A DNA stretch of 64,000 bases from a candidate division FCPU426 bacterium (GCA_963840035.1 CAWIXE010000002.1:1152001-1216000); one strand, 5' to 3'. Counted from the first letter of the stretch, positions 5,925 through 63,150 are shown. The notes: generated by a model not told the origin, from the letters alone. Program-made: numbers and translations.

Positions 5925-6006
5925 ATTTTCAATTTTCAATTTAATATTTTCAATTAAAGGCCTTAGCTGGCATTTAATTGAAAATTGAAAATATAAAATT
6001 GAAAAT
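5925..6006. repeat. ATTTTNN heptamer inverted-array element, copy 1
   Basis: 34-bp arms at 5925-5958 and 5973-6006 with a 14-nt spacer, between the divergent hom and sufC promoters. Confidence 0.9.
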
Positions 6007-6019
6007 ACACCCCCTGCCC

Positions 6020-6048
6020 TTGCCCTCCACCCCACATTATGCTATCAT
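6020..6048 (+). promoter_or_regulatory. Sigma70-type promoter of sufCB
   Basis: TTGCCC, 17 nt, TATCAT with an extended -10 TG; AGGAGG RBS at 6064-6069. Confidence 0.55.
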
Positions 6049-6073
6049 TAATAAGACCATTTTAGGAGGTTAT

Positions 6074-6814
6074 ATGCTCGAAATTACGGACCTTTGCGTT
6101 GAAATAAACGGCATTAAAGTGCTTAAATCCATTAATATTACCATCCCGGACGGTGAAACGCACATACTTTTCGGGCCTAACGGCTCAGGTAAGACTTCCC
6201 TTCTTATGACCATTATGGGTTATCCCCAGTATAAGGTAACCGGCGGGTCCATAAAGCATAACGGGGTGGAATTAACCTCCCTTCCGGTAAATGAGCGCGC
6301 CGCGTCAGGTATAGGGCTGTTCTTCCAGCGCCCCCCTTCCATAAAAGGGATAAAGCTTTCCCAGATGTCCGACATTATCAGCGGCAGAAGCGGTGTAAAA
6401 CTGGACTCTACTGTTGCCGCAAAGGCTCTGAACCTGGAATACCTGATGCCGAGGGATGTAAACCACGGATTTTCAGGGGGCGAGATAAAACGCTCCGAGC
6501 TCCTGCAGCTTTTCGCGCAGAAACCCGGCTTTATCATGCTTGACGAACCCGAATCAGGGGTTGATATAGAGAACATGAAGCTTATCGGCGGAAAGATAAG
6601 GACCCTGCTTGAACGCGGCCTTGAAAAGAAACAACGCTCAAAGAGCGCTCTTATCATAACCCACACGGGTTACATCATGGACTATGTGGACGCCGACGCC
6701 GGTTATACCCTTTTAGACGGCACCATCAAGTGCAGGCATGACGCGAGGAAACTTTTTGAGGACATACAATTACACGGATTCAGGGAGTGTGGCGCATGCA
6801 AAGACATAAAATAG
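6074..6814 (+). CDS. sufC: Fe-S assembly ABC-type ATPase SufC (SmsC type)
   Basis: GPNGSGKT Walker A, FSGGEIKRSE signature, LDEPESGVD Walker B, IITH, C-terminal CxxC. Start set at ATG 6074 after AGGAGG; the ORF track extension to 5978 reads through the repeat element. Confidence 0.9.
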   Translation: MLEITDLCVEINGIKVLKSINITIPDGETHILFGPNGSGKTSLLMTIMGYPQYKVTGGSIKHNGVELTSLPVNERAASGIGLFFQRPPSIKGIKLSQMSDIISGRSGVKLDSTVAAKALNLEYLMPRDVNHGFSGGEIKRSELLQLFAQKPGFIMLDEPESGVDIENMKLIGGKIRTLLERGLEKKQRSKSALIITHTGYIMDYVDADAGYTLLDGTIKCRHDARKLFEDIQLHGFRECGACKDIK

Positions 6815-7905
6815 AAGTTGATGAAAAAGACGAATCAAAGATAGAACGCTCCGGCATAAACCTTGACGAACAGGGCCGCAGCGGCTCTTTTGTGATGGCA
6901 AACAACCATGTCACCCATGTGACCATGCGGCAGGATGGCGTGGAAATGCTCCCCATCCACGACGCTTTGAAAAAATACCCGGAATTCTCGGATAAGATGT
7001 GGACTCTTGTCAATAAAGACAAGGACGAATACACAAAAGACGCTTACGCCGACACGCAGTCAGGGTACTTCATCCGCATAAAAGCCGGTGTAAAAGCGTT
7101 AATGCCTTTTCAGGCGTGTTTTTTTGTAAAACAGGACAAATTCAAGCAGAAAGTGCATAACCTGATAATTCTTGAGGAAGGCTCTTCCCTTCACATCATT
7201 AACGGCTGCGCAGCCGCTAATTACCTCGCGGAAGGCTCCCACATCGGAGTCACGGAAATGTTTGTCGGGAAAAACGCGCACTTAATGTACACGATGATAC
7301 ACGACTGGGCAAAAAATGTCGAGGTCAGGCCGCGTTCGGCCATCATCGTTGATGAAGGCGGTTCATATATATCAAATTATGTGGCGCTTCGCGACACAAA
7401 AATCACCCAGATGTACCCTACCGCGACACTCGCGGGCAAAGGCGCGGTCGCCAAATTTAATTCACTTGTGCTGGCGCCCGAGGGCTCTGTTTATGACCTT
7501 GGCGCAAGGGTCCTTTTAAACGCCGAGAACACCAGGGCCGAGATAATCAGCAGGTCAATATCTGACGGCGGCGACATCATAGCCCGCGGCCACCTCGAGG
7601 GCAACTCCCCTAAAGTCTTTGCGCACCTGGAATGCGACGGCCTGATGCTAAAAGACAAAGGCTTGATATCCGCGATACCGGAGCTCACTACAAAATATGC
7701 CGATGTAAATATGTCACACGAAGCTGCCATAGGAAAAATTGACGAGGAACAAATCATGTACTTAATGTCAAGGGGCATCCCAAAACCCGACGCGATATCC
7801 GCCATAGTCAGCGGTTTCATGGACGTAAAGATATTCGGCCTGCCGGAAGCGCTTGAGGAAGAGATAAATAAGAATATAAAGACGCTGGGTAAGGGAAGCC
7901 TTTAG
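6796..7905 (+). CDS. sufB: SufB/SufD family Fe-S scaffold (SmsB type)
   Basis: QACF...QKVHNLII.EEGS.LHIINGC, HLECDGLML, IPEL, SHEAAIGKIDEEQIMYLMSRG; overlaps the sufC end; GGGAG RBS before ATG 6796. Confidence 0.9.
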   Translation: MQRHKIEVDEKDESKIERSGINLDEQGRSGSFVMANNHVTHVTMRQDGVEMLPIHDALKKYPEFSDKMWTLVNKDKDEYTKDAYADTQSGYFIRIKAGVKALMPFQACFFVKQDKFKQKVHNLIILEEGSSLHIINGCAAANYLAEGSHIGVTEMFVGKNAHLMYTMIHDWAKNVEVRPRSAIIVDEGGSYISNYVALRDTKITQMYPTATLAGKGAVAKFNSLVLAPEGSVYDLGARVLLNAENTRAEIISRSISDGGDIIARGHLEGNSPKVFAHLECDGLMLKDKGLISAIPELTTKYADVNMSHEAAIGKIDEEQIMYLMSRGIPKPDAISAIVSGFMDVKIFGLPEALEEEINKNIKTLGKGSL

Positions 7906-7909
7906 AACA

Positions 7910-8015
7910 ATTTTCTATTTTGAATTTTCAATTTTCTATTAAAAATCAAAAAGGGCGGAACACATCCGCCCTTTTGTCATTTTCGCATTTAATTGAAAAT
8001 AGAAAATTTAAAATT
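7910..8015. repeat. ATTTTNN heptamer inverted-array element, copy 2 (encloses a terminator)
   Basis: Arms at 7910-7943 and 7988-8015. The right arm runs into the TAA stop of the 8014-8472 gene. Confidence 0.85.
7947..7976. terminator. Bidirectional intrinsic terminator between sufB and the convergent orphan gene
   Basis: caaaaagggcgga-acaca-tccgcccttttg: GC stem flanked by A and T tracts. Confidence 0.8.
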
Positions 8016-8472
8016 ATCTGTAAAACTTCACCACATGCGTATGCGTCAGCGCTTCCGCGCTGTCGTCTTCTTTCCTTACGCCGAGGATTATGAGCGTGTT
8101 TTTGGGGAATTTCACTCCCTGGAGCTCTTTTCTTATGAGGATGTTCATAACGTCGTCCTGCACCCTGTTGTCGCTTAAGTGGAACTCGCGCAGGTATACG
8201 ATGAAACCGTTGGGGTGCTTGCCTTCAAATGCCTCTTTTAGCCATTCGGGCGGTTTGCAGTCTTTCATTTTCATGCATCCCAGCTCGTTGTGTTCCAGGG
8301 TGCTTAAATCCTTGTCAATTAACTTTCTGCCGGTCTCATTGCTCACTTCAACAAGTATCTTATGGACCGTATCGCGCTGGTCGTGAAAGAGTATGATATC
8401 ACCCGGATCATGGGTGGTACAGGCACGCATGAAATACTTCTTCATCTCTTCATTACTTTTCATCAGATGCAT
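8014..8472 (-). CDS. Hypothetical protein resembling a degenerate MoxR/AAA_5-type ATPase core
   Basis: KPPEWL...FIVYLREFHLSDNRVQDDVMNILIRKELQGVKFPKNTLIILG mirrors the PPxW...hhhhDE.N.....VQ..h.hh.......hP....hh pattern of MoxR-like AAA proteins; no Walker A. Confidence 0.55.
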   Translation of the reverse strand: MHLMKSNEEMKKYFMRACTTHDPGDIILFHDQRDTVHKILVEVSNETGRKLIDKDLSTLEHNELGCMKMKDCKPPEWLKEAFEGKHPNGFIVYLREFHLSDNRVQDDVMNILIRKELQGVKFPKNTLIILGVRKEDDSAEALTHTHVVKFYR

Positions 8473-8484
8473 TTTTTACCCCTG

Positions 8485-8566
8485 ATTTTAAATTTTCAAT
8501 TTTAAATTTTCAATTAAAGACTTTTCCGGTAAGTTAATTGAAAATTGAAAATATAAAATTGAAAAT
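8485..8566. repeat. ATTTTNN heptamer inverted-array element, copy 3
   Basis: Arms at 8485-8518 and 8534-8566; the right arm is identical (33/33) to 5974-6006. Confidence 0.9.
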
Positions 8567-8571
8567 CCGTT

Positions 8572-9924
8572 TTATTTAGGTACAGCCGATATTTCCTTGC
8601 TGTACTTCGATTCCCTGCCCTTTTCATCAACGGAAGTTACGACAAAATAACTCCTGAGGCCGCTCTTTAAAGGGCCGACTTTCAGGTAATACTTCGGCGC
8701 CGCGATCGGCAGCTTAGTAAGCTTGTAATATTTTCCTCCCGGTTTATAGCTCATATAGACGTTATATCCGGCTATTTTAACCTTGGTATCCTTGTCTATG
8801 GACCACATTACCCATATCTTCTTTGCCTCGGGTTTAAGCTTGATCATCTTCGGCGGATTTATGGGTTTTGGCGTGGGTACCGGTGTTGGCTGCCCGATGT
8901 TAATGGTCATTCCGACCCTGTGTGAATTGCCCAGAATCCCGTACGGTATAAAAGCGTAATCAATGCCTACTTCGGTGCCGTCAAAGTTCCTGGATACCCC
9001 GAATCCGAAAGTAAACCCCGCAAACCAGCCGAGGTCGCTTATTAAATTATTCCCGTTAAGCCTGTATCCGAGCCTGGGTTTTACCATGAATTCGGAGACA
9101 TTATAAATGTATTCAAGGCCGAAATTAAGTTTAAACGGCATATTCGCAGGCTGGAGCGGAAGCACCCCGTCAATGCCGACATTTAAGGCGTCTTTAGGGT
9201 CATCAACGGAGGTAAAAAGCCTCGGCGCCTTATATGCCACGCCGAACTTAAGGTTAAGGGGCAGCGGTGAATCCGGGGCGCCCTTTACCGTATTCATCTG
9301 CATGAAACTTACATTTTGGAATACAAGGCCGACATCAAATCCCTGCATCATGGTGTTTGCCAGTATTCCGATATCCAGCGCCGGAATCCAGCCCTCTTCA
9401 AGCGCTATTTTCTGGTTGATCAGCTTTAATGTCGCGCCGACCGCGAACATCTTCGCGGCCTGCCAGCTGTACGACACGCCGAGAACGGTTCCTCCCGCGC
9501 CGAAAGTCTCGCCCTGATTTTCCTGCCATTGCGAATAATTCCAGTCCCCGCCCGTATTAAACTCTTTGGTGACATTGACATCTTCAACCCTGACTAAGAG
9601 CGCTGTAATTCCTATGGTACCCCAGATATTTATGCCGAGCTGTTCCGCGGGAAAACCTACCGCGAGATATTCATATGAAGTGCCGCCGAAATTCTGATTG
9701 TGCATGAGGGCAAACTGCGGGTTCTGCACCTTTACAAGCGCCCCCGGATTCCACCAGCCCGCGTCCACATTATCAACCACGGCAGTATACGCCTCGCCCA
9801 TGCCGCACGCCCTTGCAGAGACCCCAAGGTTAAGGTATGGTGACGCGGTTACGCCGCCATACTCCGCCGCGTATAAACCGCAGGTTAAAAATATCGCGCA
9901 AATTAACGCTATTATCCTTTTCAT
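8572..9924 (-). CDS. PorV/PorQ (UPF0164)-like outer-membrane beta-barrel fused to a PT linker and an FN3-like domain
   Basis: Signal peptide; YLNLGVSARACGMGEAYTAVVDNVDAGWWNPGAL N-terminal motif; alternating beta-strands ending DYAFIPYGILGNSHRVGM; then PTPVPTP and W...GYNVY...YFVVTSVD..G.ES..S (FN3). Confidence 0.82.
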   Translation of the reverse strand: MKRIIALICAIFLTCGLYAAEYGGVTASPYLNLGVSARACGMGEAYTAVVDNVDAGWWNPGALVKVQNPQFALMHNQNFGGTSYEYLAVGFPAEQLGINIWGTIGITALLVRVEDVNVTKEFNTGGDWNYSQWQENQGETFGAGGTVLGVSYSWQAAKMFAVGATLKLINQKIALEEGWIPALDIGILANTMMQGFDVGLVFQNVSFMQMNTVKGAPDSPLPLNLKFGVAYKAPRLFTSVDDPKDALNVGIDGVLPLQPANMPFKLNFGLEYIYNVSEFMVKPRLGYRLNGNNLISDLGWFAGFTFGFGVSRNFDGTEVGIDYAFIPYGILGNSHRVGMTINIGQPTPVPTPKPINPPKMIKLKPEAKKIWVMWSIDKDTKVKIAGYNVYMSYKPGGKYYKLTKLPIAAPKYYLKVGPLKSGLRSYFVVTSVDEKGRESKYSKEISAVPK

Positions 9925-9972
9925 TCGAGTCTCTCCTCGGTTAATATTATCGGTTATAAAAAATAAAACGGC

Positions 9973-11727
9973 CTACGGGTTTATAGTCGTAGACTCGCAT
10001 TTGTAACAGACTATTATCCTGAACACCCTGGTTTTTTTATCCGACGACTCCAGAACAAGGTAATAAAGCCCGGAAACGACTTTGGACCCGTTGTTGTTCT
10101 TTCCGTTCCACTCAAACCTGTTATTTGTCGTGGCAAGCACTTTCCCTGACTTAACAAGCGCGCCGTCCATGGCGTAAATGAATACCTTTGTATCCGGCGG
10201 GGTATTATCCACATAGAAAAATTTGCTGCCCATATTCGGGTTAAAAGGATTCGGGTAAACCCTGGCGCGGATAAGGTCCGGAGGCGCCGGCGTTGCCGTA
10301 AACGTAGGAGAAGGCGTCGCGGTTCCGCATATGCCAGTGCACGGAGTGTTCTCCGGCGTGGGCGTATTCGTCTGGGTCGGCATTGGATCTATGTAGCCGC
10401 AAACCTGGTCCGTGTTGGCCACCGGGTCATATAAAAGCGGCTCATGATAATTGGCATTTACGGTGTTGCCTTTTGATTTATTTTCGTCTGACGGGTCATA
10501 ATCAACAGGCCCGTTATTGCATGTCAACACCTTATAACAATATGTGTTTCCGCCTATAACAGCGGTATCAGTTAGGCATAATGGATATGTGCCCGCCTTG
10601 ACTATGCCGACGCTTACAAACGGATCCCCGCCTGAGGTGAGGGTCAGCGACCTATATACATGGTAAGCTGTGACCGGCACCGCAGGGTCATAAGTAGTCT
10701 GCGGCGGCCAGCTGACAAGCGCGCCCAGGGGCGTGCCGTTGTCATACGCCGTTGTGACTGTTATCGGAGAAGGCGAATCATAAACAGGCAGGCTGTCCTT
10801 TGCGCCGAGTGAAAGAAAATCATAATACATTATTATAGACCTGAAACTCGGAAGGGATTCAAATCCTTTACCCGCCAGGGTGGGCCATTTGGAGTAATCC
10901 GCCTTTGGCGCGTTTATGATGATATCCGTCACTGTCGAAACTCCAAAATACCTTCCCGTGGTGACATCATATTGATTGGCGAGATAATTTAAGGACATGG
11001 AATAAAAAGTGCTGAATGAGTTATCAAAGGCTCCCTGCGTCACAAAAGGCAGGTCGGAACCCGTGATAGTGACATTCCCGTCGTATATGGCGGCATTCTG
11101 GTAAAGAGGCTTTTCAGCTGATCCGCCGTTGGGATAAACATTAAAATACAGGTAAAATTTTATGTATCCATAACATGACATATCCCCCGCGTGTACTGTT
11201 ACAGGAGTAGGCGAAGGCCCTGCCGTAGGTATGCCTACCGGTTTTGGCACGTAACATCCGGTATTTTCAAAATTCTGCCCGAAATCCGGGTTTGTCGTCT
11301 CGGCATAATTGGTAAGGTGCACAAACTGCGGCGATGAATTGGTGTTTCCCGACCAGGAAACCCTCATGTATCCCTGCCCGTGTTTGGCAGGCGGGCAATT
11401 CGTATCAGTCGTGCCGGCGCACACGCCTCCCCCGCAATTTGTCATATAACTTAACGGAACGCCGTTATCCTTGGTGCCGCCCTGCCAGCCTTTATAATCA
11501 TATTCGGAATTGACCGGGGAATACTTCATGGTATATGGCGCATGGACAGAATCAAAATCATTTATTAAATTGGGGCTGACCGGGTAAATAGGCGGCCCAA
11601 AATAATAGTAATCCAGATCAAAAGCGTGCACATAAGGAGGGTTTGCTTTATTGGAAAAATAGCTGAAAATTGAGATCATTAGAAATACAATTAGAATCAC
11701 AAAAGAATAAATACGCCTGTTTTTCAT
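9973..11727 (-). CDS. Secreted protein with FN3-like domain, short PT linker and T9SS-CTD/FlgD-like C-terminal domain
   Basis: N-terminal hydrophobic segment; VSW...AYHVYRS...YCYKV (FN3); TPTP linker; VYPNPFNP...IYAMDGALVK...WNGKNNNG.KVVSGLYYL tail. Confidence 0.8.
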   Translation of the reverse strand: MKNRRIYSFVILIVFLMISIFSYFSNKANPPYVHAFDLDYYYFGPPIYPVSPNLINDFDSVHAPYTMKYSPVNSEYDYKGWQGGTKDNGVPLSYMTNCGGGVCAGTTDTNCPPAKHGQGYMRVSWSGNTNSSPQFVHLTNYAETTNPDFGQNFENTGCYVPKPVGIPTAGPSPTPVTVHAGDMSCYGYIKFYLYFNVYPNGGSAEKPLYQNAAIYDGNVTITGSDLPFVTQGAFDNSFSTFYSMSLNYLANQYDVTTGRYFGVSTVTDIIINAPKADYSKWPTLAGKGFESLPSFRSIIMYYDFLSLGAKDSLPVYDSPSPITVTTAYDNGTPLGALVSWPPQTTYDPAVPVTAYHVYRSLTLTSGGDPFVSVGIVKAGTYPLCLTDTAVIGGNTYCYKVLTCNNGPVDYDPSDENKSKGNTVNANYHEPLLYDPVANTDQVCGYIDPMPTQTNTPTPENTPCTGICGTATPSPTFTATPAPPDLIRARVYPNPFNPNMGSKFFYVDNTPPDTKVFIYAMDGALVKSGKVLATTNNRFEWNGKNNNGSKVVSGLYYLVLESSDKKTRVFRIIVCYKCESTTINP

Positions 11728-11758
11728 GATAAAACTCCTTTCCTATTTTTCTATAAAA

Positions 11759-11787
11759 ATTATAGTTGAAAAAATGCCCACTGTCAA
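11759..11787 (-). promoter_or_regulatory. Consensus sigma70 promoter for the CTD-protein/PorV-like pair
   Basis: On the minus strand TTGACA (11787-11782), 17 nt, TATAAT (11764-11759): a perfect consensus. Confidence 0.8.
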
Positions 11788-11998
11788 CACAAAGATTGCT
11801 TAAAAAAGATGGAAACGCCTTTTATTTCAGCCGATTCCCGGCGCGTGCGCCCTGTTCACAGCCATTGGGAATTTAGCGTTTGCCATCCGGGGCGCGCAGG
11901 TAAATTCCGGGCGTGCGGCACCGGTAATTATAAACAAAAAACTATTGTATCGCGGATGCCGGATGAAGTGGGTGAGCAGTTATATGAGAAATACGGTA

Positions 11999-13159
11999 TT
12001 ATTTGAGTAATTTATTGTCATTTATGGCGCAGCATTTTGAACAAACGGGCAAAAGTTTTTTCTTTTTCAGCAGTTTCCTGAAAGCAACATATTTTTCGCC
12101 GTTCCAGATGTCCTTAAAGGACTTATCCTTGATATTTCCCATGTCAGCGTTCAGATTGCTCAACAGGATGCATGGAAAAACCTCGCCATAGGGCGAAATA
12201 ATGGCGCGCGCCCAGGGAAATAAGCAGTAATCAACTTCATTATATGCCGGGTCGCCGTATTTTTTAACAGCCCGCACTGAAGGAAACGATATATTGATGT
12301 CAGCATCGGAGTTTTCCCTGATCAGCTGGCCCCTCACTTCAAGCATTTTATCAGGGTCAAGGTTGATCAGTTCGTCCGGCAGGTTGCCTATATCCCCCTG
12401 CCCCGGGCCTTCCATGCCAAGGATCTTTTTTGTGGCTTCGCTTAGTTTTGTGCCGTTATAAGTTATGAGCCCGACGTTCCAGTCCTTGAGCCCGGACGCC
12501 TTAATGCCCTTGAGCAGTTCAGGCAGCCCGTCCTGGTTCATCGCGGAAACCGAAGTTGATATGAGCAGCCTGGGTATTTCAAGGCCCTCTTTTTCCTTGC
12601 GCTTAAATATGCCAATGCCCTTGATTATCTTGTCATACGCGCCTTTCGCTCCCCTTATCCTGTCGTGAATATCCGCCGGGCCGTCCACGGAAATTGAAAT
12701 TGTATTGATGCGCGCGTCTATTATTTTGTCGATCACCGCCTCGTTAAGCAGAATACCGTTGGTAAAAAAATTGACCAAAAGCCCCTTTGATACCGCATAT
12801 TTTGAGATTGGAAAAAGATTTTCATATATGAGCGGCTCCCCGCCATGAAGCGTCAGCACTTTTACGCCCATGGCCGCGATATCATCTATGAGTTTTATGA
12901 TCTGATCGTAGGAAAGCTCGTCCGCCTTCCTTTTGTCTATCATATTTGCCGTATTGGATTTTTCATTTTCATTGTAATAATAGCACATGTTGCACCTTAA
13001 ATTGCAGCGGTAGGTAAGCAGCACAAGCACGTTGATGGGCGCAAGCGCTTTCCCGCGCATAAAAACATACGGAAGCCGGCTGTACATGTCTTCAGCCAGG
13101 CGTCCAAGATACTTGTTTTTTTGCAGCATTTTTATTATAAACGAGGAAAAATTTTTCAT
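11999..13159 (-). CDS. Radical SAM protein with SPASM/twitch domain (paralog 2)
   Basis: CNLRCNMC, GGEP, TNG, SVDG, C-terminal CLFPW...ISPYGEVFPC...GNI...IWNG...CSKCC. Confidence 0.92.
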   Translation of the reverse strand: MKNFSSFIIKMLQKNKYLGRLAEDMYSRLPYVFMRGKALAPINVLVLLTYRCNLRCNMCYYYNENEKSNTANMIDKRKADELSYDQIIKLIDDIAAMGVKVLTLHGGEPLIYENLFPISKYAVSKGLLVNFFTNGILLNEAVIDKIIDARINTISISVDGPADIHDRIRGAKGAYDKIIKGIGIFKRKEKEGLEIPRLLISTSVSAMNQDGLPELLKGIKASGLKDWNVGLITYNGTKLSEATKKILGMEGPGQGDIGNLPDELINLDPDKMLEVRGQLIRENSDADINISFPSVRAVKKYGDPAYNEVDYCLFPWARAIISPYGEVFPCILLSNLNADMGNIKDKSFKDIWNGEKYVAFRKLLKKKKLLPVCSKCCAINDNKLLK

Positions 13160-13165
13160 GTTTTA

Positions 13166-13194
13166 ATGATACACTCCCGGAATATGTTTGTCAA
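13166..13194 (-). promoter_or_regulatory. Sigma70 promoter, probably giving a leaderless mRNA
   Basis: TTGACA (13194-13189), 17 nt, TATCAT (13171-13166), only 6 nt upstream of ATG 13159. Confidence 0.65.
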
Positions 13195-13290
13195 TGTCAT
13201 TCCTCCCCCCCAAAAACGCGGGGCGCAAACGCTTCATTAGGGGCAGTGCGCATACCGGCATAAAAACTCCCGCGGAAAGCAAGAATTGGC

Positions 13291-14566: not shown

Positions 14567-14578
14567 ATGGCTATAAGA

Positions 14579-52086: not shown

Positions 52087-52088
52087 CT

Positions 52089-53854: not shown

Positions 53855-56233
53855 TCATGGTGTAACATTCGTATTGTTGTCAAACTGGGGCATTATCGCG
53901 AACTTTTGCGTTTTGCGCTCAAGCCTTCCTTCTGAATTCTTCGACTCGATTACCGCTATGTAGTAACCCGCGCCTATCGTATCCCCGTTGCTGGCCTTGA
54001 CATCCCAGGCCACCATGCCGTCTTCAAGTTTTGCCTTGAATTTCTTGACCTGCTCGCCGTTGATATTATATATGTAAACTGTAACCCATCCTGTGCCCAC
54101 ATATGTCCAGCCGATGATGATATGGTCCACCTTTGAGACTTCAGGGCCTTTATACGGGTTTGGCATGACCTTTATCTCGCCAAGCGTAGAAACCGCGGTT
54201 TCATTCAGGACTATGATAGTCCTGGAATCAACGCTGGTCCTGCCGGATGAATCCTTAAGTATAAACTGCAGCTCATAAGTTCCGTTGCCCACCCTTATGC
54301 CCTGGCTGTTCTTGCCGTCCCAATAAAGGTAATCAGGCCCTTTGCCGTATTGTATGGCAATCGGCGAAGCAACCTTGTCAAAACCAAGGACAGGGTTATC
54401 GTTATAAAGTTTTACGCTCAGTTTGTCCACTACGGGATTATCGATCCTGATAATCCTTACTGTCTCTCCCGCACTGTTGAAAATGGACATCTCAAGGTAA
54501 TGGTCCATCGTAATGACGTTAATGTCCTTTATTAATACAGTTGTATGGTCATATGTGTCCGTCTGTTCTATCTGTATGTAATACTTGCCCGGCGAGACTG
54601 TCTGCAGCGCCGAATTATCCGCCTGCCAGAACCATGATGTAGACCCGTTGCCAAGCGTGGAAGGGGTTCCGAGCCCCGGGAATTTCAGCTCAAGCGCCTG
54701 GCCCGGCCCGACTATATTTTTCGAATCCGTACCGACATACAGGCTTACGTCCTGCATGAGCTTATTGCATACATCCTGTGCTATCACCTTAACAAGCTCC
54801 CCTGCCTCGTTATATACGCCTATCTTTATGGTGTAAGGGAACGGGGGCCTGGTGGGCGTTATCGTCGGCGTGCTGGTTACGGTGTTAGTCACGGTAAATG
54901 TGGGCGTGGCAGTCCTTGTCGGGGTATCGGTGGGCGTCGCAGTCATCGTATCGGTGCTTGTGTAAGTCGGGGTTGCCGTCGAGGTATCCGTGGCCGTGTA
55001 GGTAAAAGTCACCGTCTGGGTGGCTGTATATGTCGGTGTAGCCGTATAGGTAAATGACTGGGTCGGGGTAGCAGTATATGTGTTGGTGTCGGTATATGTG
55101 GGCGTGGCCGTCCTTGTAGCCGTATATGTCGGAGTGTAGGTCGGGGTATAAATGGGCGTATCCGTAAATGTCGGTGTGGCTGTATATGTGGAAGTGTATG
55201 TCGGCGTCGCGGTGGATGTGTTTGTCGCGGTAAATGTGGGGGTATGCGTCGGCGTATTTGTCGGGGTGTACTGCGGCGTATTAGTAGATGTAAGCGTGTA
55301 TGTCGAAGTTTGCGTGTAAGTCGAGGTATAAGTGCTTGTGGAAGTATAGGTGTTTGTATATGTATAGGTGGACGTCATGGTATATGTCGAAGTGGACGTC
55401 CTTGTGCTCGTCGACGTGGGCGTATAGGTCACGCTCGGGGTATTTGTCGATGTGGGTGTAAATGACGGGGTGCTCATCAAAATCGGCACAAAAGCGCAGC
55501 TGGTGGAGCCTTTGGAATCATAAACGCAGTTCAGCTTCCCCACGGTCGTAGGCGACGCTGTCGCTGTAGGTATGGAACATGGCAATTTGCCCCTTTGTGA
55601 ATCAATTGTCCCGAGAGCATCAGTCCATTCCATCTCAAGTACTCCGCCCCTGAATAGCGCCACGTTGGCATAATTTGACATGACGGCCGGAGCCCTTGTA
55701 TAATCGTCGCAGGCCGGGTCCATGGGATTGAGCCATCCAGTGACAGCTAAATTCATGGTAACCGACGTCCATCCGCCGGGAGGTATGGCTGCCGCAGGCG
55801 TATAATCCTGTGTAAACTGCCATGTTGCCCCTTCGATGGCGCACGAGAACGCGCTTGCTGAAGCAGCGCCTATGCTGCCGCCATTTCCCTGATATCCCGC
55901 GGTCGAAGGATAAGCTGCCGAATAAATACCGCCTATCTGCGGTGAATTATTAAAAGGCGCGGCTGAAGAGTTTGTCCAGACCGCTATGGTAAAAGGGCCG
56001 GCAACGGGTGCCGCCGTATTATTTATGATGACGCAGCTTATATTCTGGCTCTGGTTGGTACAGCCGCTCTGGGTCTGCACGCACATAAGGTTAAGCCCGG
56101 CCGCTGCAAACAATGAAGACGACATGGCGCAGAAAACAGAGACAATCAGCGCAGCCTTCAGCTGAGTACGTGAGATAAAGCCTCTTTTACTGTTTGCCAA
56201 TTCCTGACTTTTCATGTTTTTCTCCCGGGACAA
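53855..56233 (-). CDS. Secreted protein: CBM3-like N-domain, long (Thr-X)n/PT stalk, triple Ig/FlgD/CTD-like tail
   Basis: Signal-like segment ending SSLFA; DDYT...NYANVALFRGGVL; about 200 aa of alternating Thr; PFPYTIKIGVYNEAGELVK, WDGKN, MPNPY motifs. The exact start is uncertain. Confidence 0.8.
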   Translation of the reverse strand: MSREKNMKSQELANSKRGFISRTQLKAALIVSVFCAMSSSLFAAAGLNLMCVQTQSGCTNQSQNISCVIINNTAAPVAGPFTIAVWTNSSAAPFNNSPQIGGIYSAAYPSTAGYQGNGGSIGAASASAFSCAIEGATWQFTQDYTPAAAIPPGGWTSVTMNLAVTGWLNPMDPACDDYTRAPAVMSNYANVALFRGGVLEMEWTDALGTIDSQRGKLPCSIPTATASPTTVGKLNCVYDSKGSTSCAFVPILMSTPSFTPTSTNTPSVTYTPTSTSTRTSTSTYTMTSTYTYTNTYTSTSTYTSTYTQTSTYTLTSTNTPQYTPTNTPTHTPTFTATNTSTATPTYTSTYTATPTFTDTPIYTPTYTPTYTATRTATPTYTDTNTYTATPTQSFTYTATPTYTATQTVTFTYTATDTSTATPTYTSTDTMTATPTDTPTRTATPTFTVTNTVTSTPTITPTRPPFPYTIKIGVYNEAGELVKVIAQDVCNKLMQDVSLYVGTDSKNIVGPGQALELKFPGLGTPSTLGNGSTSWFWQADNSALQTVSPGKYYIQIEQTDTYDHTTVLIKDINVITMDHYLEMSIFNSAGETVRIIRIDNPVVDKLSVKLYNDNPVLGFDKVASPIAIQYGKGPDYLYWDGKNSQGIRVGNGTYELQFILKDSSGRTSVDSRTIIVLNETAVSTLGEIKVMPNPYKGPEVSKVDHIIIGWTYVGTGWVTVYIYNINGEQVKKFKAKLEDGMVAWDVKASNGDTIGAGYYIAVIESKNSEGRLERKTQKFAIMPQFDNNTNVTP
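54845..55475 (-). repeat. Low-complexity (Thr-X)n coding repeat
   Basis: TPTYT/TATPT/TSTYT variants with 6-nt periodicity. Confidence 0.85.
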
Positions 56234-56269
56234 TCCCGTTTTTCTTTTGATATAACGGCAGACTTTTTT

Positions 56270-58621
56270 TTACGGTACCGCAGTCACCTTGCCGACCCAT
56301 GTGACGCTCTGGTTGCAAGTTCCTTTGGGGATATCCCCGAGGCTCCACGATACCGTACCTGTGCCGGGGCATCCCGTACAGCCGCCTGTGCAGCTTGTAC
56401 ACTGTACCCCTGCCGGAACAGGATCTGTTATCACATAATTATGAAGCACTCCTACGCTGTCGTTACAGTATGTTATGATCCATGTAATATTGTCGCCATT
56501 TAAAACAGGTGTTAAAGGTAACGCGGTTTTCGTTAAACCGGTTATTTCAGCGCAGATCGGGCTTGCGATTACCCTGTTCGACTTCTGCGCGATTATGCCC
56601 GTGCCGCCAATCCAGCTTTCATTGGTTATGGGGTTGCATGATTTGACCTTGCCCCACCAGGTAAGCGAACCGCCTTCATCCTGCAGATTGCCGAGGTTAA
56701 AAGTAACAACTCCGCCCGCGAACGACCCTGATTTCGGCGCGGCAGGCGTGTTCATTCCCGTATAAACGACTGATCCGTCGTTGTTATTAGGAAGCGTGTC
56801 CCATACAGTGGTTGTGGCCGCGGTAAAAGGGTTGTACACCACAAAATTATTATATGAATCCTTTGCATATTTCGTGGCATCGTCCCCGCCCTGCTCGGCT
56901 ATACCCGGCCTCCAGTTGGAGCCGTTATTGCAGTTAAGCGCTGTCCTTCTTGCCGCGTCCGTATCGTTCCATTCTATCTGGTATCCGCTCGGTTCCGGGT
57001 CGCCCTTTGGCCACGCCTTTGCCATGAAATGGTACTGGTTCGCCGGGTCAATCCAGATCTTCACGCGCCACCATTTGTTCGCGGTAATTGTCGGGTCCGG
57101 CTGGCCCGGTATGGCCACCGCTGGAGGCCAATAACATCCCGGCCCCGCGGTACAAGCCTGGAATTCTATATGGCCGGCGGTATACCCGCCGATGTTTTTA
57201 TCCACGGATATTGCCAGGCCGTACGCATTGCCGCTGGCAAGCCCGTCGTTCCTGATAAATATCATCGCGTCGGAACCTTCGTAACCGTTCGGGTCTATCA
57301 ACACATCCGTTTCTATGATGCCGCTGCACATTTTGGAAGTTGCTGGAAGGCCGTTAAACAATAACGCGGGATACTGTTTTGTGGCGCTTACCGAACCTGT
57401 TATGACCCTGTCCCCGGTGTTGCAGTTGTCCGCGACTTCCCACTGCCCTTCAGTCCCGTTTTGAGGAACAAAACTCCATCCGGGTACGGCGGGGCCACCT
57501 ATGCCGTATTTGCCGTATATGCCGTTTGGTATGTCGTCAAAAGGCTGGTATCCGACAAGCTCCATTCCGTTTACATTATATGTGAGTATGTAAGTGATGT
57601 TATCATCGTATGACGGGTTTGATTCGCTCTGGTCCTTTATAATGGATACAGCGGCCTGGCCGACCGTGTTTGTGGCATCAGCGGGCACGCTTCCAACCAA
57701 TGGCATGGTGCCTGTCGCGCTGTTTTTGTATTTTGTGTTGAATACCGGCGCTGTAGCCTGCCTGTATAGCATCCAGACAGTACCGCTGGCAGTACCCGCC
57801 ATACCTGTCCTGTCATACATGGTCCAGGAAAAATTCCCGGTGGACGCGCCGACGGCAGGCCCCGTAGCCGGCACGCCGGCTATGGATGTAGGGCCGAAAG
57901 AAACGAGCTGCAGCGCGCCGCCGTTAGGAGGCACAATATCGGTTATGGAAAACGGCCCGTTCCAGTATTCATAATCTATTGAAAATAAAACGAGGTCCCC
58001 GATTATCTGTACAGCGCCCACGGTCCTTTTGCTTATTGAAAAGCCCCTGGGTATTGTGCCTATGTTCCATGATAACGCCGGCGGGTCCAGTGCGCATACG
58101 GACGAACCGATCCATTCAGGGGCGTTAAGGTTTTGGTCTTTCATTCCGACATACAGGTAGAGTTTTGTGACGTTGCATCCTGGATAATAAGATGCCGGGG
58201 GGACATGCACGGTATATGTGACTGTGCGTATGGTGCTCTGGACATTATTATTGCAATCTGTGCAGTTGCCTGTGCCCGGCCCGTTCGGGTTCGCATTTGC
58301 AAGCCAACCTATCTCTCCGCCGGTCGTCGCCTGCGGCTGGGAAGTGGCCACATCTATCCCCGCCCTGCTCACCACAAAAACCTGGCCGTTTCCCGAGAGT
58401 TCAGCGCTGGTCTTAGTCGGCTGTGAACTGATGGCTATGTCTATCATGGCTGCGTTATAGTTTTGGGAGCAGTATCTTACGGTGATATCCACCGCATCCC
58501 CGAAAGTCGGGGTTGAGGGGTTCATGGTGACGCTTATGACCTTAGGACCTGCAGCAAGAAAAGCTGCAAACAGCATGAACGCCATCATAAAAACTGTATT
58601 TTTAAGGAAATTTCCGCTCAT
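56270..58621 (-). CDS. Secreted Cys-rich multidomain protein with DUF11-like Ig domains and a beta-sandwich/lectin-like core
   Basis: Signal peptide; ISKRT...GDLVLFSIDY, IIKDQS...DNITYILTY, LTKTA...GDNITWIITYCN..ITDPVPAGV...VSWSLGDIP; paralog of the N-terminal half of 58974-62864. Confidence 0.78.
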   Translation of the reverse strand: MSGNFLKNTVFMMAFMLFAAFLAAGPKVISVTMNPSTPTFGDAVDITVRYCSQNYNAAMIDIAISSQPTKTSAELSGNGQVFVVSRAGIDVATSQPQATTGGEIGWLANANPNGPGTGNCTDCNNNVQSTIRTVTYTVHVPPASYYPGCNVTKLYLYVGMKDQNLNAPEWIGSSVCALDPPALSWNIGTIPRGFSISKRTVGAVQIIGDLVLFSIDYEYWNGPFSITDIVPPNGGALQLVSFGPTSIAGVPATGPAVGASTGNFSWTMYDRTGMAGTASGTVWMLYRQATAPVFNTKYKNSATGTMPLVGSVPADATNTVGQAAVSIIKDQSESNPSYDDNITYILTYNVNGMELVGYQPFDDIPNGIYGKYGIGGPAVPGWSFVPQNGTEGQWEVADNCNTGDRVITGSVSATKQYPALLFNGLPATSKMCSGIIETDVLIDPNGYEGSDAMIFIRNDGLASGNAYGLAISVDKNIGGYTAGHIEFQACTAGPGCYWPPAVAIPGQPDPTITANKWWRVKIWIDPANQYHFMAKAWPKGDPEPSGYQIEWNDTDAARRTALNCNNGSNWRPGIAEQGGDDATKYAKDSYNNFVVYNPFTAATTTVWDTLPNNNDGSVVYTGMNTPAAPKSGSFAGGVVTFNLGNLQDEGGSLTWWGKVKSCNPITNESWIGGTGIIAQKSNRVIASPICAEITGLTKTALPLTPVLNGDNITWIITYCNDSVGVLHNYVITDPVPAGVQCTSCTGGCTGCPGTGTVSWSLGDIPKGTCNQSVTWVGKVTAVP

Positions 58622-58724
58622 ATATTTCCTCCAAATTTTACTTCATAAATTAGACATCGAAAACTATATATAGTTTCGGTAATTTTAAGGAAAACTTTAC
58701 ACATTTCTTATAAAACAACACCTT

Positions 58725-58753
58725 ATTTTATACAATTATAGGAATTATGTCAA
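58725..58753 (-). promoter_or_regulatory. Sigma70-type promoter
   Basis: TTGACA (58753-58748), 17 nt, TAAAAT (58730-58725). Confidence 0.65.
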
Positions 58754-58770
58754 ATATTATTAAGGGAGGT

Positions 58771-58969
58771 ATTTTCAATTTTAAATTTTCTATTTTCAAT
58801 TAAAATCCAGTACAGAAAACGCCATATTTTATTGATATTTTCTGTTTTACAGCACAAGATTTCACCCCTGTAGCGGCCGCATTTAATGCGGCCTCTGCAA
58901 AAACAACAAAACGCCAGTTTCCCGGCGTCTTGTTGTTTAATTGAAAATTGAAAATATAAAATTGAAAAT
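58771..58969. repeat. ATTTTNN heptamer inverted-array element, copy 4 (long spacer)
   Basis: Arms at 58771-58804 and 58936-58969 (right arm identical to copies 1 and 3). The 131-nt spacer contains two hairpins. Confidence 0.88.
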
Positions 58970-58973
58970 CGCC

Positions 58974-61900
58974 CTAATACACATTCCCCAAATTCCCGTT
59001 TTGCATCATGACGGCTATCTTTGCCGTTTTCCTCTCGAGCAGACCCTCTGAATTCCTGGAATTAATTACAGCCACATAGTATCCAGCCGCTATTGGTTCT
59101 TCCCCGTTGCTTGCCATGAGATTCCATGCCACACCGCCGTCCTCAAGCCTGGCTTTAAATTTCTTTACCTGCTCGCCTTGCAGGTTATAAATATATACAG
59201 TAACCCATCCTGTCCCGGTAAATGACCAGCCTATGTCTATGTGGTCTACCTTTGAAACCACAGGGCCCCTGTAAGGGTTTGGCATTATTTTCACATCGCC
59301 AAGCGAAGAGTCTATTCTTTCATTTAATATATTCACTGTCCTTGAACCCTGTATCATCCTTCCCGAGTGGTTGGTAAGGACGAATTGTATCTCATAAACG
59401 CCGTTGCCCACCCTGACCCCGAGGTCATTTTTCCCGTCCCAGTCTATAAAACTTCCGGGCGCGTATTCAATTGATACCGGATTGTCATTTTTACCAAAAC
59501 TTATATCTTCCTCAATCTTTAGCGTAAGTTCATCAGCAGCCGGATTATTCACCCTGATAGTCCTGACCGCCTCGCCTGCCGTGTTAAACACCTTCATCTC
59601 GACATATCTGTCAAGATGCAGCACGGTTATGTCTTTTATAAGGACCGTCACATGGTCATAAGTGTCTTTTTGCGATATCTGTATGTAATATTTTCCCTGC
59701 GACACCGGCTGGTTTGCTGTATTATCCGCCGCCCAGGTGAAAACGGTAAAACCGTCCTGTATGGTATCAGGCGTGCAAAGCCCCGGGAAATTTATCGAGA
59801 GCACTCCGCCGGGCCCGATTATGCTGTCAGCGGCCCCGCCGGTTGACATCCAGACGTTCTTCATGGCCGCGGTGCATGGCTCTTCGGCTATGAATTTAAC
59901 CAATTCCCCCGCCTCGTTATAGACGCCGATCTTTATCATGTACGGAAATGGCGGCTCAGTCGGCGTGATAGTCGGCGTATTAGTCACTGTCCTTGTGGCA
60001 GTCAGCGTGGGCGTATGCGTCCTTGTATCTGTCGGCGTCGCTGTTTCAGTCACGGTCTGGGTCGATGTCTTTGACATAGTCTGCGTGAATGTGAAAGACT
60101 CGGTAGGCGACGCGGTAAGCGTCGGCGTGGCGGTAAAAGTCGGCGTCATGGTTTTTGTATTTGTATCAGTCGGGGTCGACGTGCGCGTAAACTCGGGCGT
60201 ATGGGTAAATGTCGGCGTGTGGGTGGACGTGGACGTATATGTCGGCGTATCCGTGTTTGTGGGCGTGGGTGTGGCTGTATCGGTATATGTGGAAGTGGCG
60301 GTCCTGGTAGGCGTGGCAGTGCTTGTCGGTGAATATGTAGGGGTCACTGTGGGCGTGAATTCCGGCGAATTAGTATACGTAGGCGTCACCGACGGTGTGG
60401 CTGTCCTCGTGGCTGTCGCGGTATATGTGTCCGTGGCAGTCGGCGTGGCCGTCCTTGTGGCCGTGTCGGTGCTTGTCGGCGTATGCGTAGACGTTGCCGT
60501 AAATGTGAATATCACCGACTGCGTAAATGTCGGGGTCGCTGTCATGGTCGCGGTCTTAGTCGGCGTCGATGTCTTCGTGTCCGTGGCTGTATAAGTGTCT
60601 GAAGGCGTGGAAGTCAGCGTGTATGTCGAAGTTGCCGTCCTGGACGGCGTAGCCGTAAGAGTGTTTGTGTACGTGGAAGAAGGCGTATATGTCGGCGTAT
60701 TTGTCCTCGTTGAAGTGTATGTGGACGTCGGCGTATTTGTCTTCGTTGCCGTGGATGTGGGGGTATTGGTAGGCGTGCTGCAGAGCACTTTGAGCGATAC
60801 GATGTTTGAGTACACAGGCTGGCCTGAAGCGCCGTCTATGTACGCGCTGTTGGTTATGGCGGCCGGGTCCTGTGTGCAATCCACCCTGCCCCACCATGTA
60901 AGCGAACCCGTCTGGTTTGTAAGCGAACCCATATCCCATTTCACAGTCTGATTAGGCGCCGTGCCTGCCACAGTTGCCGCGCCTCCGGGGCCCGTTCCTG
61001 AACCAAGATACGTGATTCCCAGCGGCACAGTGTCCAGTACCACGGTATTCTCGCTTGAAGACCTTTCCTTATATATAGTAAAGTTATCGTATGAGTCCTT
61101 TACATCCTTTGAATTTCCTGTCTGCTCATTTACTCCCGGACGCCAGTCTTTATATGTCCCTGTCCCGTCGCAAATCCACGCGGCGTCTGAATTTAACAGG
61201 GGGTCTGTATAATCTATGTCCCAATTTGTCGGCTCAGAATCGCCCCTGGGCCATATCCTCGCCCTTATCCTCTGCCCTCCGCCGGAATTAGTAACCCAAA
61301 TCCTTACCCTGTACCATTTATTTGCCGACGGGTAGCCAATTGACGGCGCCGGACCGCCCGGAGTCACGCCGATGTAGGTACACGTCGTCCCGGCGCACTT
61401 CTGATACATTAAAAAACCGGGGGTTGGGGCTTCATCAATGGATACCACAATGCCTATTCCCTGCGCTGCTCCGCCGCTTTGCCCGTTATTCCTGATGACG
61501 ATCTGCCCGTCAGCCCCCGGGAACGTGCCCGGGTCGATCTTTATGTCAGAAACTATGATGCCTGTGCAGAACTGGTCGCTGTCAGCCGGAAGGTGCGGGG
61601 CCGCGCTGCCGTCATTTAAAAGCATTCCAGGATACATATCCGAAGCTCCGGTAAATACCCTGTCGCCGGTGCTAAAACCCGTGCACGGGTCTCCGACAGT
61701 CCAGGTTGTCGCGGCAGTGCCGCCCACCGGCATCCATCCGGCCGGCGCCCCTGACGGGCCGATATAATTACCCGCGGCTATGTCGTCAAACCCGCTGAAA
61801 CTTTTTAATATGTAACCATTAATGTCGTATGAAAGCGTATAAGTTATGGTGTCGCCGCTGTTTAAAACCGGGGCGCTTTCTGATTTTGTCAGGCTGACAG

Positions 61901-62864
61901 CCGTGGCGCCCGTTGTGACCGTGGCCGGAGGCGTGTCATAATTTGGCTGGCCGTTCATGGAGCCGTGGGCTATATTTGAATATGAACCCGATGGAACTCC
62001 TGTAACCGCGCACAGCATCCACACCGTGCCTTTTACAGAGCCATTGATGCCTGTCCTGTCCGGGAAAGTCCACGTGATAGTCCCCGCTGAATTCACAGCG
62101 CTTCCCGCAGGCGGCCCGGGGATTGTCTGCGGCCCCCATGAAATAAGTGTGAAGCCTGCCGGTACCGAGTCAACTATCTTAAAATTGCTGCCGTTTGCAT
62201 ATTCGTAATCCACCGAAAAGAGCACTTTGTCCCCTGCTGCCTGAAGCACTCCCTCATACCTTTTTGCTATCTTAAAATATGTCGGGAAGGTCGGGACATC
62301 CCAGCTTATTGCTTTTGCCTGGCATGCCGCAAGCGGCTGCGAACCCACAGGATCCCAGCTCTGCGCGCCTGAGAGGTAAGAATTTTTGGCGGCTGCGTGG
62401 ACATACAGTTTTGTCAGGTTACAGTTTGGGAAATTATCGGCATTGGGTATTTTTATGGTGTAATGAAGCCTGACCGTCCTTGACGGGTCTCCCGCGTTGC
62501 AGCCATTCGTGCATGGGGTGGGAGTAAGCGCCGGCAGCGACGAGAGCTGTACGAGGTTAGGGTCCTTGTATCCTATCTCGTCCTCGGATGATAAAAATGT
62601 AATCTTTTCCTTATTTACCCCATACTTGGTCACCATGAAAACCTGCCCGCCGCTGCCCGGGGTTGTCCTTACAGGAGATTGGCTTATGGCAAGGGCTATC
62701 TGAGCCTCATTATAATTATTCGTGCACATGTCAACATAGACATCGACAATCTGTCCGAACACAGGCTGGGCCGGGACCATTGTAATCCCTATTATCTCAG
62801 GTTCGGCAAATACAAATGCCGCCATAAGAAGGGACATAATTAAAAGCACAAGTTTTCTCAGCAT
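58974..62864 (-). CDS. Large secreted protein: DUF11-like/lectin-like N-region, (Thr-X)n stalk, triple Ig/FlgD/CTD-like tail
   Basis: Signal peptide; LTKSESAPVLNSGDTITYTLSY; about 280-aa Thr-alternating stalk; PFPYMIKIGVYNEAGELVK, WDGKNDLG, MPNPY. Confidence 0.85.
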   Translation of the reverse strand: MLRKLVLLIMSLLMAAFVFAEPEIIGITMVPAQPVFGQIVDVYVDMCTNNYNEAQIALAISQSPVRTTPGSGGQVFMVTKYGVNKEKITFLSSEDEIGYKDPNLVQLSSLPALTPTPCTNGCNAGDPSRTVRLHYTIKIPNADNFPNCNLTKLYVHAAAKNSYLSGAQSWDPVGSQPLAACQAKAISWDVPTFPTYFKIAKRYEGVLQAAGDKVLFSVDYEYANGSNFKIVDSVPAGFTLISWGPQTIPGPPAGSAVNSAGTITWTFPDRTGINGSVKGTVWMLCAVTGVPSGSYSNIAHGSMNGQPNYDTPPATVTTGATAVSLTKSESAPVLNSGDTITYTLSYDINGYILKSFSGFDDIAAGNYIGPSGAPAGWMPVGGTAATTWTVGDPCTGFSTGDRVFTGASDMYPGMLLNDGSAAPHLPADSDQFCTGIIVSDIKIDPGTFPGADGQIVIRNNGQSGGAAQGIGIVVSIDEAPTPGFLMYQKCAGTTCTYIGVTPGGPAPSIGYPSANKWYRVRIWVTNSGGGQRIRARIWPRGDSEPTNWDIDYTDPLLNSDAAWICDGTGTYKDWRPGVNEQTGNSKDVKDSYDNFTIYKERSSSENTVVLDTVPLGITYLGSGTGPGGAATVAGTAPNQTVKWDMGSLTNQTGSLTWWGRVDCTQDPAAITNSAYIDGASGQPVYSNIVSLKVLCSTPTNTPTSTATKTNTPTSTYTSTRTNTPTYTPSSTYTNTLTATPSRTATSTYTLTSTPSDTYTATDTKTSTPTKTATMTATPTFTQSVIFTFTATSTHTPTSTDTATRTATPTATDTYTATATRTATPSVTPTYTNSPEFTPTVTPTYSPTSTATPTRTATSTYTDTATPTPTNTDTPTYTSTSTHTPTFTHTPEFTRTSTPTDTNTKTMTPTFTATPTLTASPTESFTFTQTMSKTSTQTVTETATPTDTRTHTPTLTATRTVTNTPTITPTEPPFPYMIKIGVYNEAGELVKFIAEEPCTAAMKNVWMSTGGAADSIIGPGGVLSINFPGLCTPDTIQDGFTVFTWAADNTANQPVSQGKYYIQISQKDTYDHVTVLIKDITVLHLDRYVEMKVFNTAGEAVRTIRVNNPAADELTLKIEEDISFGKNDNPVSIEYAPGSFIDWDGKNDLGVRVGNGVYEIQFVLTNHSGRMIQGSRTVNILNERIDSSLGDVKIMPNPYRGPVVSKVDHIDIGWSFTGTGWVTVYIYNLQGEQVKKFKARLEDGGVAWNLMASNGEEPIAAGYYVAVINSRNSEGLLERKTAKIAVMMQNGNLGNVY
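59950..60780 (-). repeat. Low-complexity (Thr-X)n coding repeat
   Basis: TPTxT/TATPT/TSTHT variants with 6-nt periodicity. Confidence 0.85.
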
Positions 62865-62934
62865 GTTCTCCCTTTCGTTGTTAACCGTTTAAATATATGG
62901 ACAAAAAAAATGAGGTTTAGTTCCTCACCAAAAT

Positions 62935-62963
62935 AGTATATTTTACAATTATAAACGTGTCAA
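62935..62963 (-). promoter_or_regulatory. Sigma70-type promoter
   Basis: TTGACA (62963-62958), 17 nt, TATACT (62940-62935). Confidence 0.7.
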
Positions 62964-63026
62964 TTGGTATAAACCGAATGGTTTCTCAATGCGGAACAAA
63001 AAATTGAAAGGGTTCAATGAAGGCGA

Positions 63027-63150
63027 ATTTTCGATTTTCAATTTTAAATTTTCAATTAAAGTCAAAATGCCGTACTTATAAACCAAAAACGCCCGCATCC
63101 GGGCGTTTTTGGTTTATATAATTGAAAATCGAAAATTCAAAATTGGAAAT
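63027..63150. repeat. ATTTTNN heptamer inverted-array element, copy 5 (encloses a terminator)
   Basis: Arms at 63027-63060 and 63117-63150. The right arm abuts the TAA stop at 63150-63152. Confidence 0.85.
63077..63118 (-). terminator. Intrinsic terminator
   Basis: tataaaccaaaaacgcccg-catc-cgggcgtttttggtttata. Confidence 0.85.

Follow-up and report, generated by a model that had tools for sequence, protein, structure and literature searches.

Five-core heptamer arrays in inverted pairs at the gene junctions of a candidate division FCPU426 bacterium and their association with four-helix-bundle cassettes

The window analysed here is a stretch of 64,000 nucleotides (nt) from a candidate division FCPU426 bacterium (GCA_963840035.1, CAWIXE010000002.1:1152001-1216000), that is, G000:C2:1152001-1216000 of the source genome G000, which measures 3.46 Mb and is 98% complete. 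It contains five intergenic elements, each consisting of two inverted arms of tandem 7-nt units around a spacer, and on balance we favour reading them as gene-less copies of a cassette that encodes a four-helix-bundle protein, each arm being the predicted landing site of one protein pentamer. The reading is carried by the build of the arms, their pairing within families, their placement against gene boundaries, their lineage-specific gain, the occurrence of the same arms around intact four-helix genes and the co-occurrence of these genes with arrays among genomes. Gene boundaries are those of a simple gene caller, which gave 2923 genes in the source genome, some with wrong starts.

All five elements of the first-pass annotation, which described arms of about 34 bp with repeat units capped by ATTAAA, were found where it had placed them (Table 1). 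The identity it noted among the right arms at 5974, 8534 and 58937 was borne out, and this 33-nt sequence occurs 8 times in the genome. Its spacer lengths of 14, 44, 131 and 56 nt are correct when measured between 34-nt arms, as is its description of the repeat units; the spacer of element 3 is 14 nt and not 15, a value counted from a 33-nt arm, and only the ATT of the cap is fixed, its three A's being kept at 71-88%. The arm is therefore taken here as 31 nt with five ATT cores. Variation is, as had been said, concentrated at the NN positions of the unit and not compensatory, with 4.62 mismatches between partners against 4.63 between shuffled partners (66 pairs). The count of five copies falls short, since at a threshold of at least 22 of 26 fixed positions the family has 258 arms in the genome and 0 in each of five local shuffles, a comparison that the annotation had itself proposed, and the window also holds a sixth inverted heptamer pair, of another family. 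At the junction of this sixth pair no heptamer pair was found in relatives G003 and G005. Rfam gave no match within the window, and element 1 had no match in phage records.

The window family, with 77 left-right pairs and spacers of 9-147 nt, is the largest of 17 heptamer families in the genome. A de novo scan for period 7 gave 747 arrays, and on dividing the intergenic arrays by period, 720 were found at 7, 1 at 8, 11 at 9 and 71 at 6 (the last spread genome-wide, for example at C1:106173 and C1:199932). The 17 family profiles match 1030 arms, 46 of them inside called genes, as against 2 matches in a shuffled genome, and arms are present in 609 of 2920 gene gaps (21%). An arm is composed of five near-invariant 3-nt cores and variable 4-nt linkers. 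When ATT runs at 7-nt spacing were searched with any linker, 393 had five cores, 125 four, 11 six and none more, and three shuffles gave 0 with five cores. An inner core left out of the search still reads ATT in at least 99% of cases (201/202, 186/187 and 171/171), a sixth core on either side is present in only 2 of 169 arms, and positions 6-7 vary widely in units 2 and 3 when one inner unit is left free. Alignments of the 17 families show about four heptamers and a partial fifth unit, the 35-nt alignment window and the detection threshold limiting what they can show for shorter arms. Within the window family, 165 arms have four units plus ATT, 35 have three and 2 have five. Also, perfect arrays are avoided: none of 198 arms consists of four consensus units, unit 2 equals unit 3 in 4 cases where 31 are expected, and three adjacent units are identical once against 18.8 expected. 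The window arms are about 90% A+T, with ATTTTCA as unit and without G tracts. Arms of the same kind are found in many phyla in GTDB, where a pattern demanding at least five cores returned exactly five in 62 of 80 fetched loci, with a mirror run upstream in 25 of the 80 and downstream in none.

Close inverted pairs in the 17 families join arms of the same family in 284 cases and of different families in 23. With 284 of 307 pairs thus family-matched, we rejected the idea that arms are mainly written one at a time at the ends of genes; solo and mixed arms do exist. In the window family, 71 of 80 stop-facing ends lie at -8 to +7 nt of the stop codon; taking all families together, the distance is at most 12 nt for 245 of 287 stop-facing ends, and at most 30 nt from the start for 156 of 281 start-facing ends. 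Most pairs (245 of 284) stand between co-directional genes, and 210 of these tandem pairs are within 12 nt of the stop. Among the ends far from a start (n=97), a sigma-70-like -35 box is present within 30 nt in 42 cases against 3.8 in shuffles. Even with 60 nt or more of slack in the gap, 51 of 76 pairs stay against the stop codon (7.3 expected), and in convergent gaps both ends touch a stop codon in 15 of 21. The arms therefore abut stop codons, ribosome-binding sites or -35 boxes and the pairs fill the dispensable gap edge to edge, which suggests that flanks are trimmed. It may be noted that at C2:444329-447880, C2:538048 and C2:721106 of G000 an element is followed by a ribosome-binding-site-like tail at junctions that nearly abut or overlap in G018 and G022; insertion at such junctions may thus uncouple translation.

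The window pattern has 172 matches in the source genome and 0 in 23 of 30 relatives, while two genomes of the same family have 25 and 40, with arms of other linkers. No five-core pair is present at the junction of element 3 in any of the 7 relatives shown, nor at the junction of element 2 in any of 3. Over 182 comparisons of 151 orthologous junctions, the relative has a period-7 array at 7 of the 57 where the source genome has an arm, and several of these arrays are of a different family. The comparison of orthologous loci, recommended in the first-pass annotation, thus finds the arms mostly absent from the same junctions in relatives. Some elements have related spacers at unrelated loci and in both orientations; in 8 such pairs from 7 elements the spacers differ at 49 of 363 sites (13.5%) and positions 6-7 at 34%, and none of 192 core sites differs.

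Some spacers contain terminators, nested palindromes or an IS30-like insert. They act as havens for inserts at G000:C2:827240, C1:275032, C1:672952 and window 58802-58938, the inserts being an IS30-like transposase gene split over two frames (labelled by eye), long palindromic repeats and a GTAG-headed hairpin. The GTAG-headed hairpin, which lies in the spacer of element 4, we take to be REP-like (repetitive extragenic palindrome). One type of spacer, with a TATTATAAT box and short GC hairpins, is common to several arm families and to elements of G002 and G006 (G000:C1:775830, C1:780259, C1:116871 and C3:38659; L072, L075, L086 and L091), and its sharing suggests common descent while linkers changed genome-wide.

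The source genome has eight matches to TIGR02436/PF05635, the Avd-like four-helix bundle of S23p or intervening-sequence (IVS) type. Two of these genes (C1:786298 and C2:519718) are placed between arms of families 10 and 14 with the polarity seen in empty pairs, and a third (C1:780744) between ATT-core arms, with a small matching family of empty pairs, ATT-TGAA/TAAA. Of the other five, three have arrays on the upstream side alone, one has longer repeats, and one is without arrays. The C1:780744 cassette, the pairs of G002 and G006 and the GTDB pairs can be read, on reinterpretation, as ATT-core arms with other linkers, since their opposite-polarity look arises because AATT is palindromic. Phylum-wide, 37 of 96 four-helix loci have inverted arms on both sides, 15 have them upstream only and 5 downstream only. 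The build of the window arms matches that of the arms flanking TIGR02436 genes in the ATT-core cassettes L340, L342, L352 and L006, and in the first three the polarity is that of the window. Also, a broken four-helix gene of G017 is followed by a window-type right arm. Cassette arms measure 29-35 nt in 45 of 74 cases. Protein distance and heptamer distance are correlated over 35 loci (Mantel rho 0.40; 0.23 in the reverse-orientation control), the long composite loci L042 and L115 being left out of the test and the tree. On sampling 18-60 kb of DNA per genome, seven relatives that have no such gene gave 1 array in a total of 382 kb, and ten that have at least five gave 34 in 396 kb.

The guess that such elements carry four-helix-bundle genes as cargo therefore holds for sister families, which have cassettes in the source genome, and fails for the window family, whose pairs enclose no gene; small GxxExxY genes, suggested with it, were not found in the genome. 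What the same-family brackets do enclose is four-helix genes, one IS30-like insert (again labelled by eye) or host genes, with no cognate transposase. A metagenome scan gave 18 loci at 61-79% protein identity, a distance at which spacers are not alignable. A four-helix gene at L002 (G000:C2:219362) is flanked by inverted tandem repeats of about 35-49 nt with only short heptamer runs. Arrays or arm pairs upstream only, with none downstream, were seen at L003, L004, L005, L050, L054, L056, L105, L121 and L122; this group is a second architecture, perhaps autoregulatory.

Among solved structures, the four-helix proteins of the source genome match 2RLD (E 5e-20) and 2GSC/XCC0516 (E 7e-16), both of them five-chain, and one gene matches bAvd below the cut-off (E 8.6e-5). 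Xcc0516 is a homopentameric toroid (PMC4990558), and in the related Avd pentamer every one of the five protomers touches an RNA stem-loop, whose flipped bases are taken up between subunits (10.1101/2023.10.23.563531). The five cores and the five subunits agree in number. We infer that the four-helix protein binds the arms and that the pairs move. One pentamer would read one arm, each subunit taking one core. The arm would most plausibly be single-stranded, since on a rigid double helix five sites spaced by 7 bp cannot all be turned towards the same ring; nor would a 7-bp period fit the phased binding of the first-pass annotation, taken as binding on one helix face. Recognition would take place at DNA ends, because the arms are intact where no transcript should carry both. 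The pentamer-bound ends may then let a host enzyme copy the arm pair into new gaps, after which dispensable flanking DNA would be lost up to a stop codon, ribosome-binding site or promoter, and the spacer would drift and collect terminators and other inserts. For the ATT-core families of the source genome, the closest candidate protein is the gene G000:C1:780720 (L006).

Several results weigh against the cassette reading. No gene lies inside any pair of the exact TTCA-linker family of the window, and no four-helix remnant was found in 37 spacers of at least 60 nt or in the window elements, which can therefore be only empty forms. Most of the 17 families have no cassette in the source genome, 59 of the 96 four-helix loci are without two inverted arms, and a four-helix gene lies within 700 nt in only 1 of the 80 GTDB loci with an arm. 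The cassette contains no enzyme, and the 98% complete genome has no PF00078 (reverse transcriptase) match. Kin are not independent, the Mantel signal could come from co-inheritance alone, and the co-occurrence has exceptions: the sampled DNA of G012 and G023 was free of arrays in spite of their 5-7 genes, and in G014 one gene stands against 7 arrays. As regards the arms, the five-core peak is weaker for GTG (34 against 28 with four) and GTT (16 against 10), no such peak was obtained by exact match for GAG, GAC, AGC and AAG, some relatives have much longer arms (9 of 74 cassette arms exceed 36 nt), and at the scan threshold a partner is missing for 76 of 210 strong arms. Most spacers are unrelated. 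Finally, target-site duplications, which the first-pass annotation had proposed to record, were looked for and none was found, flank matches of 2-5 nt being at chance level over 284 pairs; later loss of the flanks could have erased them.

The strongest alternative, which we judge unlikely, is an intervening sequence that acts at the RNA level. Here the arms would pair in messenger RNA (mRNA) and form a long hairpin, cut by RNase III or bound by the pentamer, which splits or stabilises operon messages between a stop codon and the next ribosome-binding site, as in the IVSs of 23S ribosomal RNA (rRNA). Four elements, when folded, have z scores of -4.5 to -8.0; the pairs are mostly between co-directional genes, and 237, being without a detected internal terminator, could be co-transcribed; and G.U exceeds A.C in transcript orientation (357 against 295, a naive p of 0.017 from non-independent pairs). 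In Coxiella, too, the IVS contains an S23p gene together with heptamer repeats and is cleaved by RNase III (PMC4990558). Good folding is common to all inverted repeats, however, many arms are solo, and partner arms are no more complementary than random members of their family (6.78 against 6.61 mismatches, 284 pairs). Also, arms are equally well kept in the 31 pairs that stand between divergent genes or enclose a detected terminator (p 0.68), elements 1 and 2 included, by reason of divergent -35 boxes and an enclosed bidirectional terminator respectively. The absence of partner covariation, and arms equally intact without predicted co-transcription, thus support the earlier view, which preferred a protein-binding array or non-autonomous element ends to a selected RNA stem.

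We regard it as improbable that the arms, whatever their origin, are now selected by the host as sites for a chromosome-organising or insulating protein. The model would be the heptads of parS in pSM19035, contiguous 7-bp units that are read by the oligomeric protein omega2, in few plasmid sites and with a ParAB motor, as opposed to the hundreds of chromosomal inverted pairs here. Cores that stay intact while linkers and spacers drift, the -35 boxes near the far ends and the presence of an arm in a fifth of the gene gaps are all in keeping with such a role. On the other side, the genome has 17 families side by side that differ in sequence, from one genus to the next a given junction changes in occupancy and in family, and relatives without four-helix genes have almost no arrays. 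Still less probable is the usual filing of such arrays as simple-sequence repeats without function that arose by slippage and were dispersed by recombination. The arms are indeed tandem heptamers, and long near-perfect arrays in L042, L128 and G002 show that slippage happens, but the length is fixed at five ATT cores, identical adjacent units are avoided, period 8 is nearly absent beside period 7, and the pairs are inverted and family-matched. The REPIN-RAYT system and the MITEs (miniature inverted-repeat transposable elements) of bacteria are many non-autonomous inverted intergenic doublets with few cognate genes flanked by the same repeats. Movement by a Y1 (RAYT/IS200-type) tyrosine transposase, which the doublet layout, variable spacer and after-stop placement recall, is very improbable, because within 600 nt before or 900 nt after any of the 8 Y1 matches in the genome there is no arm, Y1 matches occur in 6 of 7 relatives without four-helix genes and arrays, and G004 has arrays and no Y1 match.

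On comparing the gene-less cassettes that we favour with known systems, the cognate four-helix gene has no known catalytic activity and the arms are heptamer arrays rather than the palindromes of REPINs. Terminal inverted repeats, lack of coding capacity and many copies are shared with MITEs; a target-site duplication and a cognate transposase with the same ends are not. The IVSs of 23S rRNA that bear an open reading frame (S23p, PF05635/TIGR02436; Coxiella, PMC4990558) have the same protein family, terminal inverted repeats and heptameric repeats upstream of the reading frame. Here, in contrast, the sites are mRNA gene junctions and promoter gaps and nearly all copies are gene-less; the five window elements all lie between protein genes and none inside an rRNA gene, and the partner arms lack the excess complementarity expected of a near-perfect terminal stem kept by pairing. 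The Avd protein of diversity-generating retroelements (PF22296; 10.1101/2023.10.23.563531) is a positively charged pentamer similar to S23 proteins with a five-protomer nucleic-acid contact, whereas the genome, in a search for the enzyme and not for template or variable repeats, gave no reverse transcriptase. By the features tested, the elements are outside the IVS, MITE, REPIN and diversity-generating retroelement families.

The claim that the elements match no described system went too far. The GGGAATC repeats of Xanthomonas, reported by Rehm et al. (2015) with the Nostoc heptamer GGGGA(C/T)T and interpreted as G-quadruplex-forming simple repeats, share with the window family imperfect arms, mostly of four units, inverted pairs and placement at stops and starts; they are intergenic and number about 186 per genome, with 70-75 inverted pairs (PMC4692102). 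They differ in a G-rich, quadruplex-forming unit, the window arms being A+T-rich and unable to form a quadruplex, and in the source genome 17 families coexist. One four-unit GGGAATC repeat (Rehm's repeat 15) is 6 nt past XCC0517 and overlaps the start of the pentamer gene XCC0516 (PMC4692102). No partner protein is named for the Xanthomonas and Nostoc repeats in the accessible text of that paper. The TAACTGA repeats of Beggiatoaceae are likewise abundant intergenic heptamer sets near gene boundaries with a patchy phylogeny, in direct sets of 2-6 units and almost never in inverted pairs (MacGregor 2015, PMC4679880); the main text of that article does not contain the term helix bundle. The repeat system is thus real and genome-wide; as a kind it has been described before, and here it is A+T-rich and present in unusual abundance. 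Our literature searches, whose coverage excluded most subscription journals and bioRxiv supplements, gave no paper tying such heptamer repeats to the four-helix family, and the five-core rule and the heptamer-armed four-helix cassette were not found in print.

As a wider and more tentative proposal, one to which we would not quite commit ourselves, these elements may belong to an undescribed, widespread selfish class in which a non-catalytic S23p/Avd-like pentamer ring recognises 31-nt five-core arms and causes gene-less pairs to spread, with a separate heptamer for every protein lineage. The class would comprise at least 17 families in a fifth of the gene gaps of the source genome and would account for the heptamer excess of bacteria, including the Xanthomonas repeats. 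Over-representation of heptamers in bacterial intergenic DNA has been noted as unexplained (PMC4692102), and the S23p/IVS four-helix-bundle proteins are described as having no known function (PMC4990558); two old puzzles are thereby joined into one testable question. The five-core rule leads to an exact prediction, one subunit per core, and crystal structures exist already for homologues of the proteins concerned. The occurrence of the Xanthomonas layout in an A+T-rich family is a further argument against quadruplex formation as a general function, and if each protein lineage reads its own heptamer, these proteins would form a natural set of ring-shaped nucleic-acid binders of different specificities.

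Table 1. Arms and associated features of the inverted heptamer pairs in the window, with three four-helix loci of the source genome.
Feature	Position	Strand	Remark
Element 1 left arm, five ATT cores	5925..5955	+	outer end 7 nt from -35 box of predicted hom promoter (5917, minus strand)
Element 1 spacer	5956..5975	.	20 nt measured between 31-nt arms
Element 1 right arm	5976..6006	-	-35 box of predicted sufC promoter (6020) 13 nt past outer end
Element 2 left arm	7910..7940	+	sufB stop codon (7905) 4 nt before
Bidirectional terminator-like hairpin	7949..7975	.	within element 2 spacer
Element 2 right arm	7991..8021	-	outer unit degenerate; overlaps stop codon of convergent gene 8014-8472
Element 3 left arm	8485..8515	+	12 nt from start of gene 8014-8472 (minus strand)
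Element 3 right arm	8536..8566	-	5 nt after stop of gene 8572-9924 (minus strand)
Element 4 left arm	58771..58801	+	-35-like boxes upstream of gene 56270-58621, 7-17 nt from outer end
Element 4 spacer	58802..58938	.	GTAG-headed hairpin and terminator-like hairpin, read by eye
Element 4 right arm	58939..58969	-	4 nt after stop of gene 58974-62864 (minus strand)
Element 5 left arm	63027..63057	+	
Element 5 right arm	63120..63150	-	first base is last base of upstream gene's stop codon
Sixth inverted heptamer pair, other family (GTT-type cores)	1984..2067	-	overlooked by the first-pass annotation
Four-helix locus L003	G000:C2:73399		protein starts M-x-F-x-FE
Four-helix locus L004	G000:C3:492520		protein starts M-x-F-x-FE
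Four-helix locus L005	G000:C2:1127095		protein starts M-x-F-x-FE

Element 1 is thus placed between two divergent promoters, predicted for hom and sufC, and the spacer of element 5 includes a GC hairpin. An inverted pair with a 9-nt period lies between hom and a PALP-family gene (window 4336-4443), and one like it is present in G004 at a different junction, possibly a sister system with different spacing. Large proteins with long Thr/Pro/Ser-rich repeat linkers are encoded at 53855-56233, 58974-62864 and 9973-11727, the second with an additional weak FlgD Ig-like match. The sufC-sufB genes (6074-7905) stand between hom and gene 8014-8472 (loci compared: L028, L031, L032); sufB adjoins the counterpart of the latter gene also in G001, G018 and G020, and in G002, G003 and G005 this counterpart is directly beside hom.

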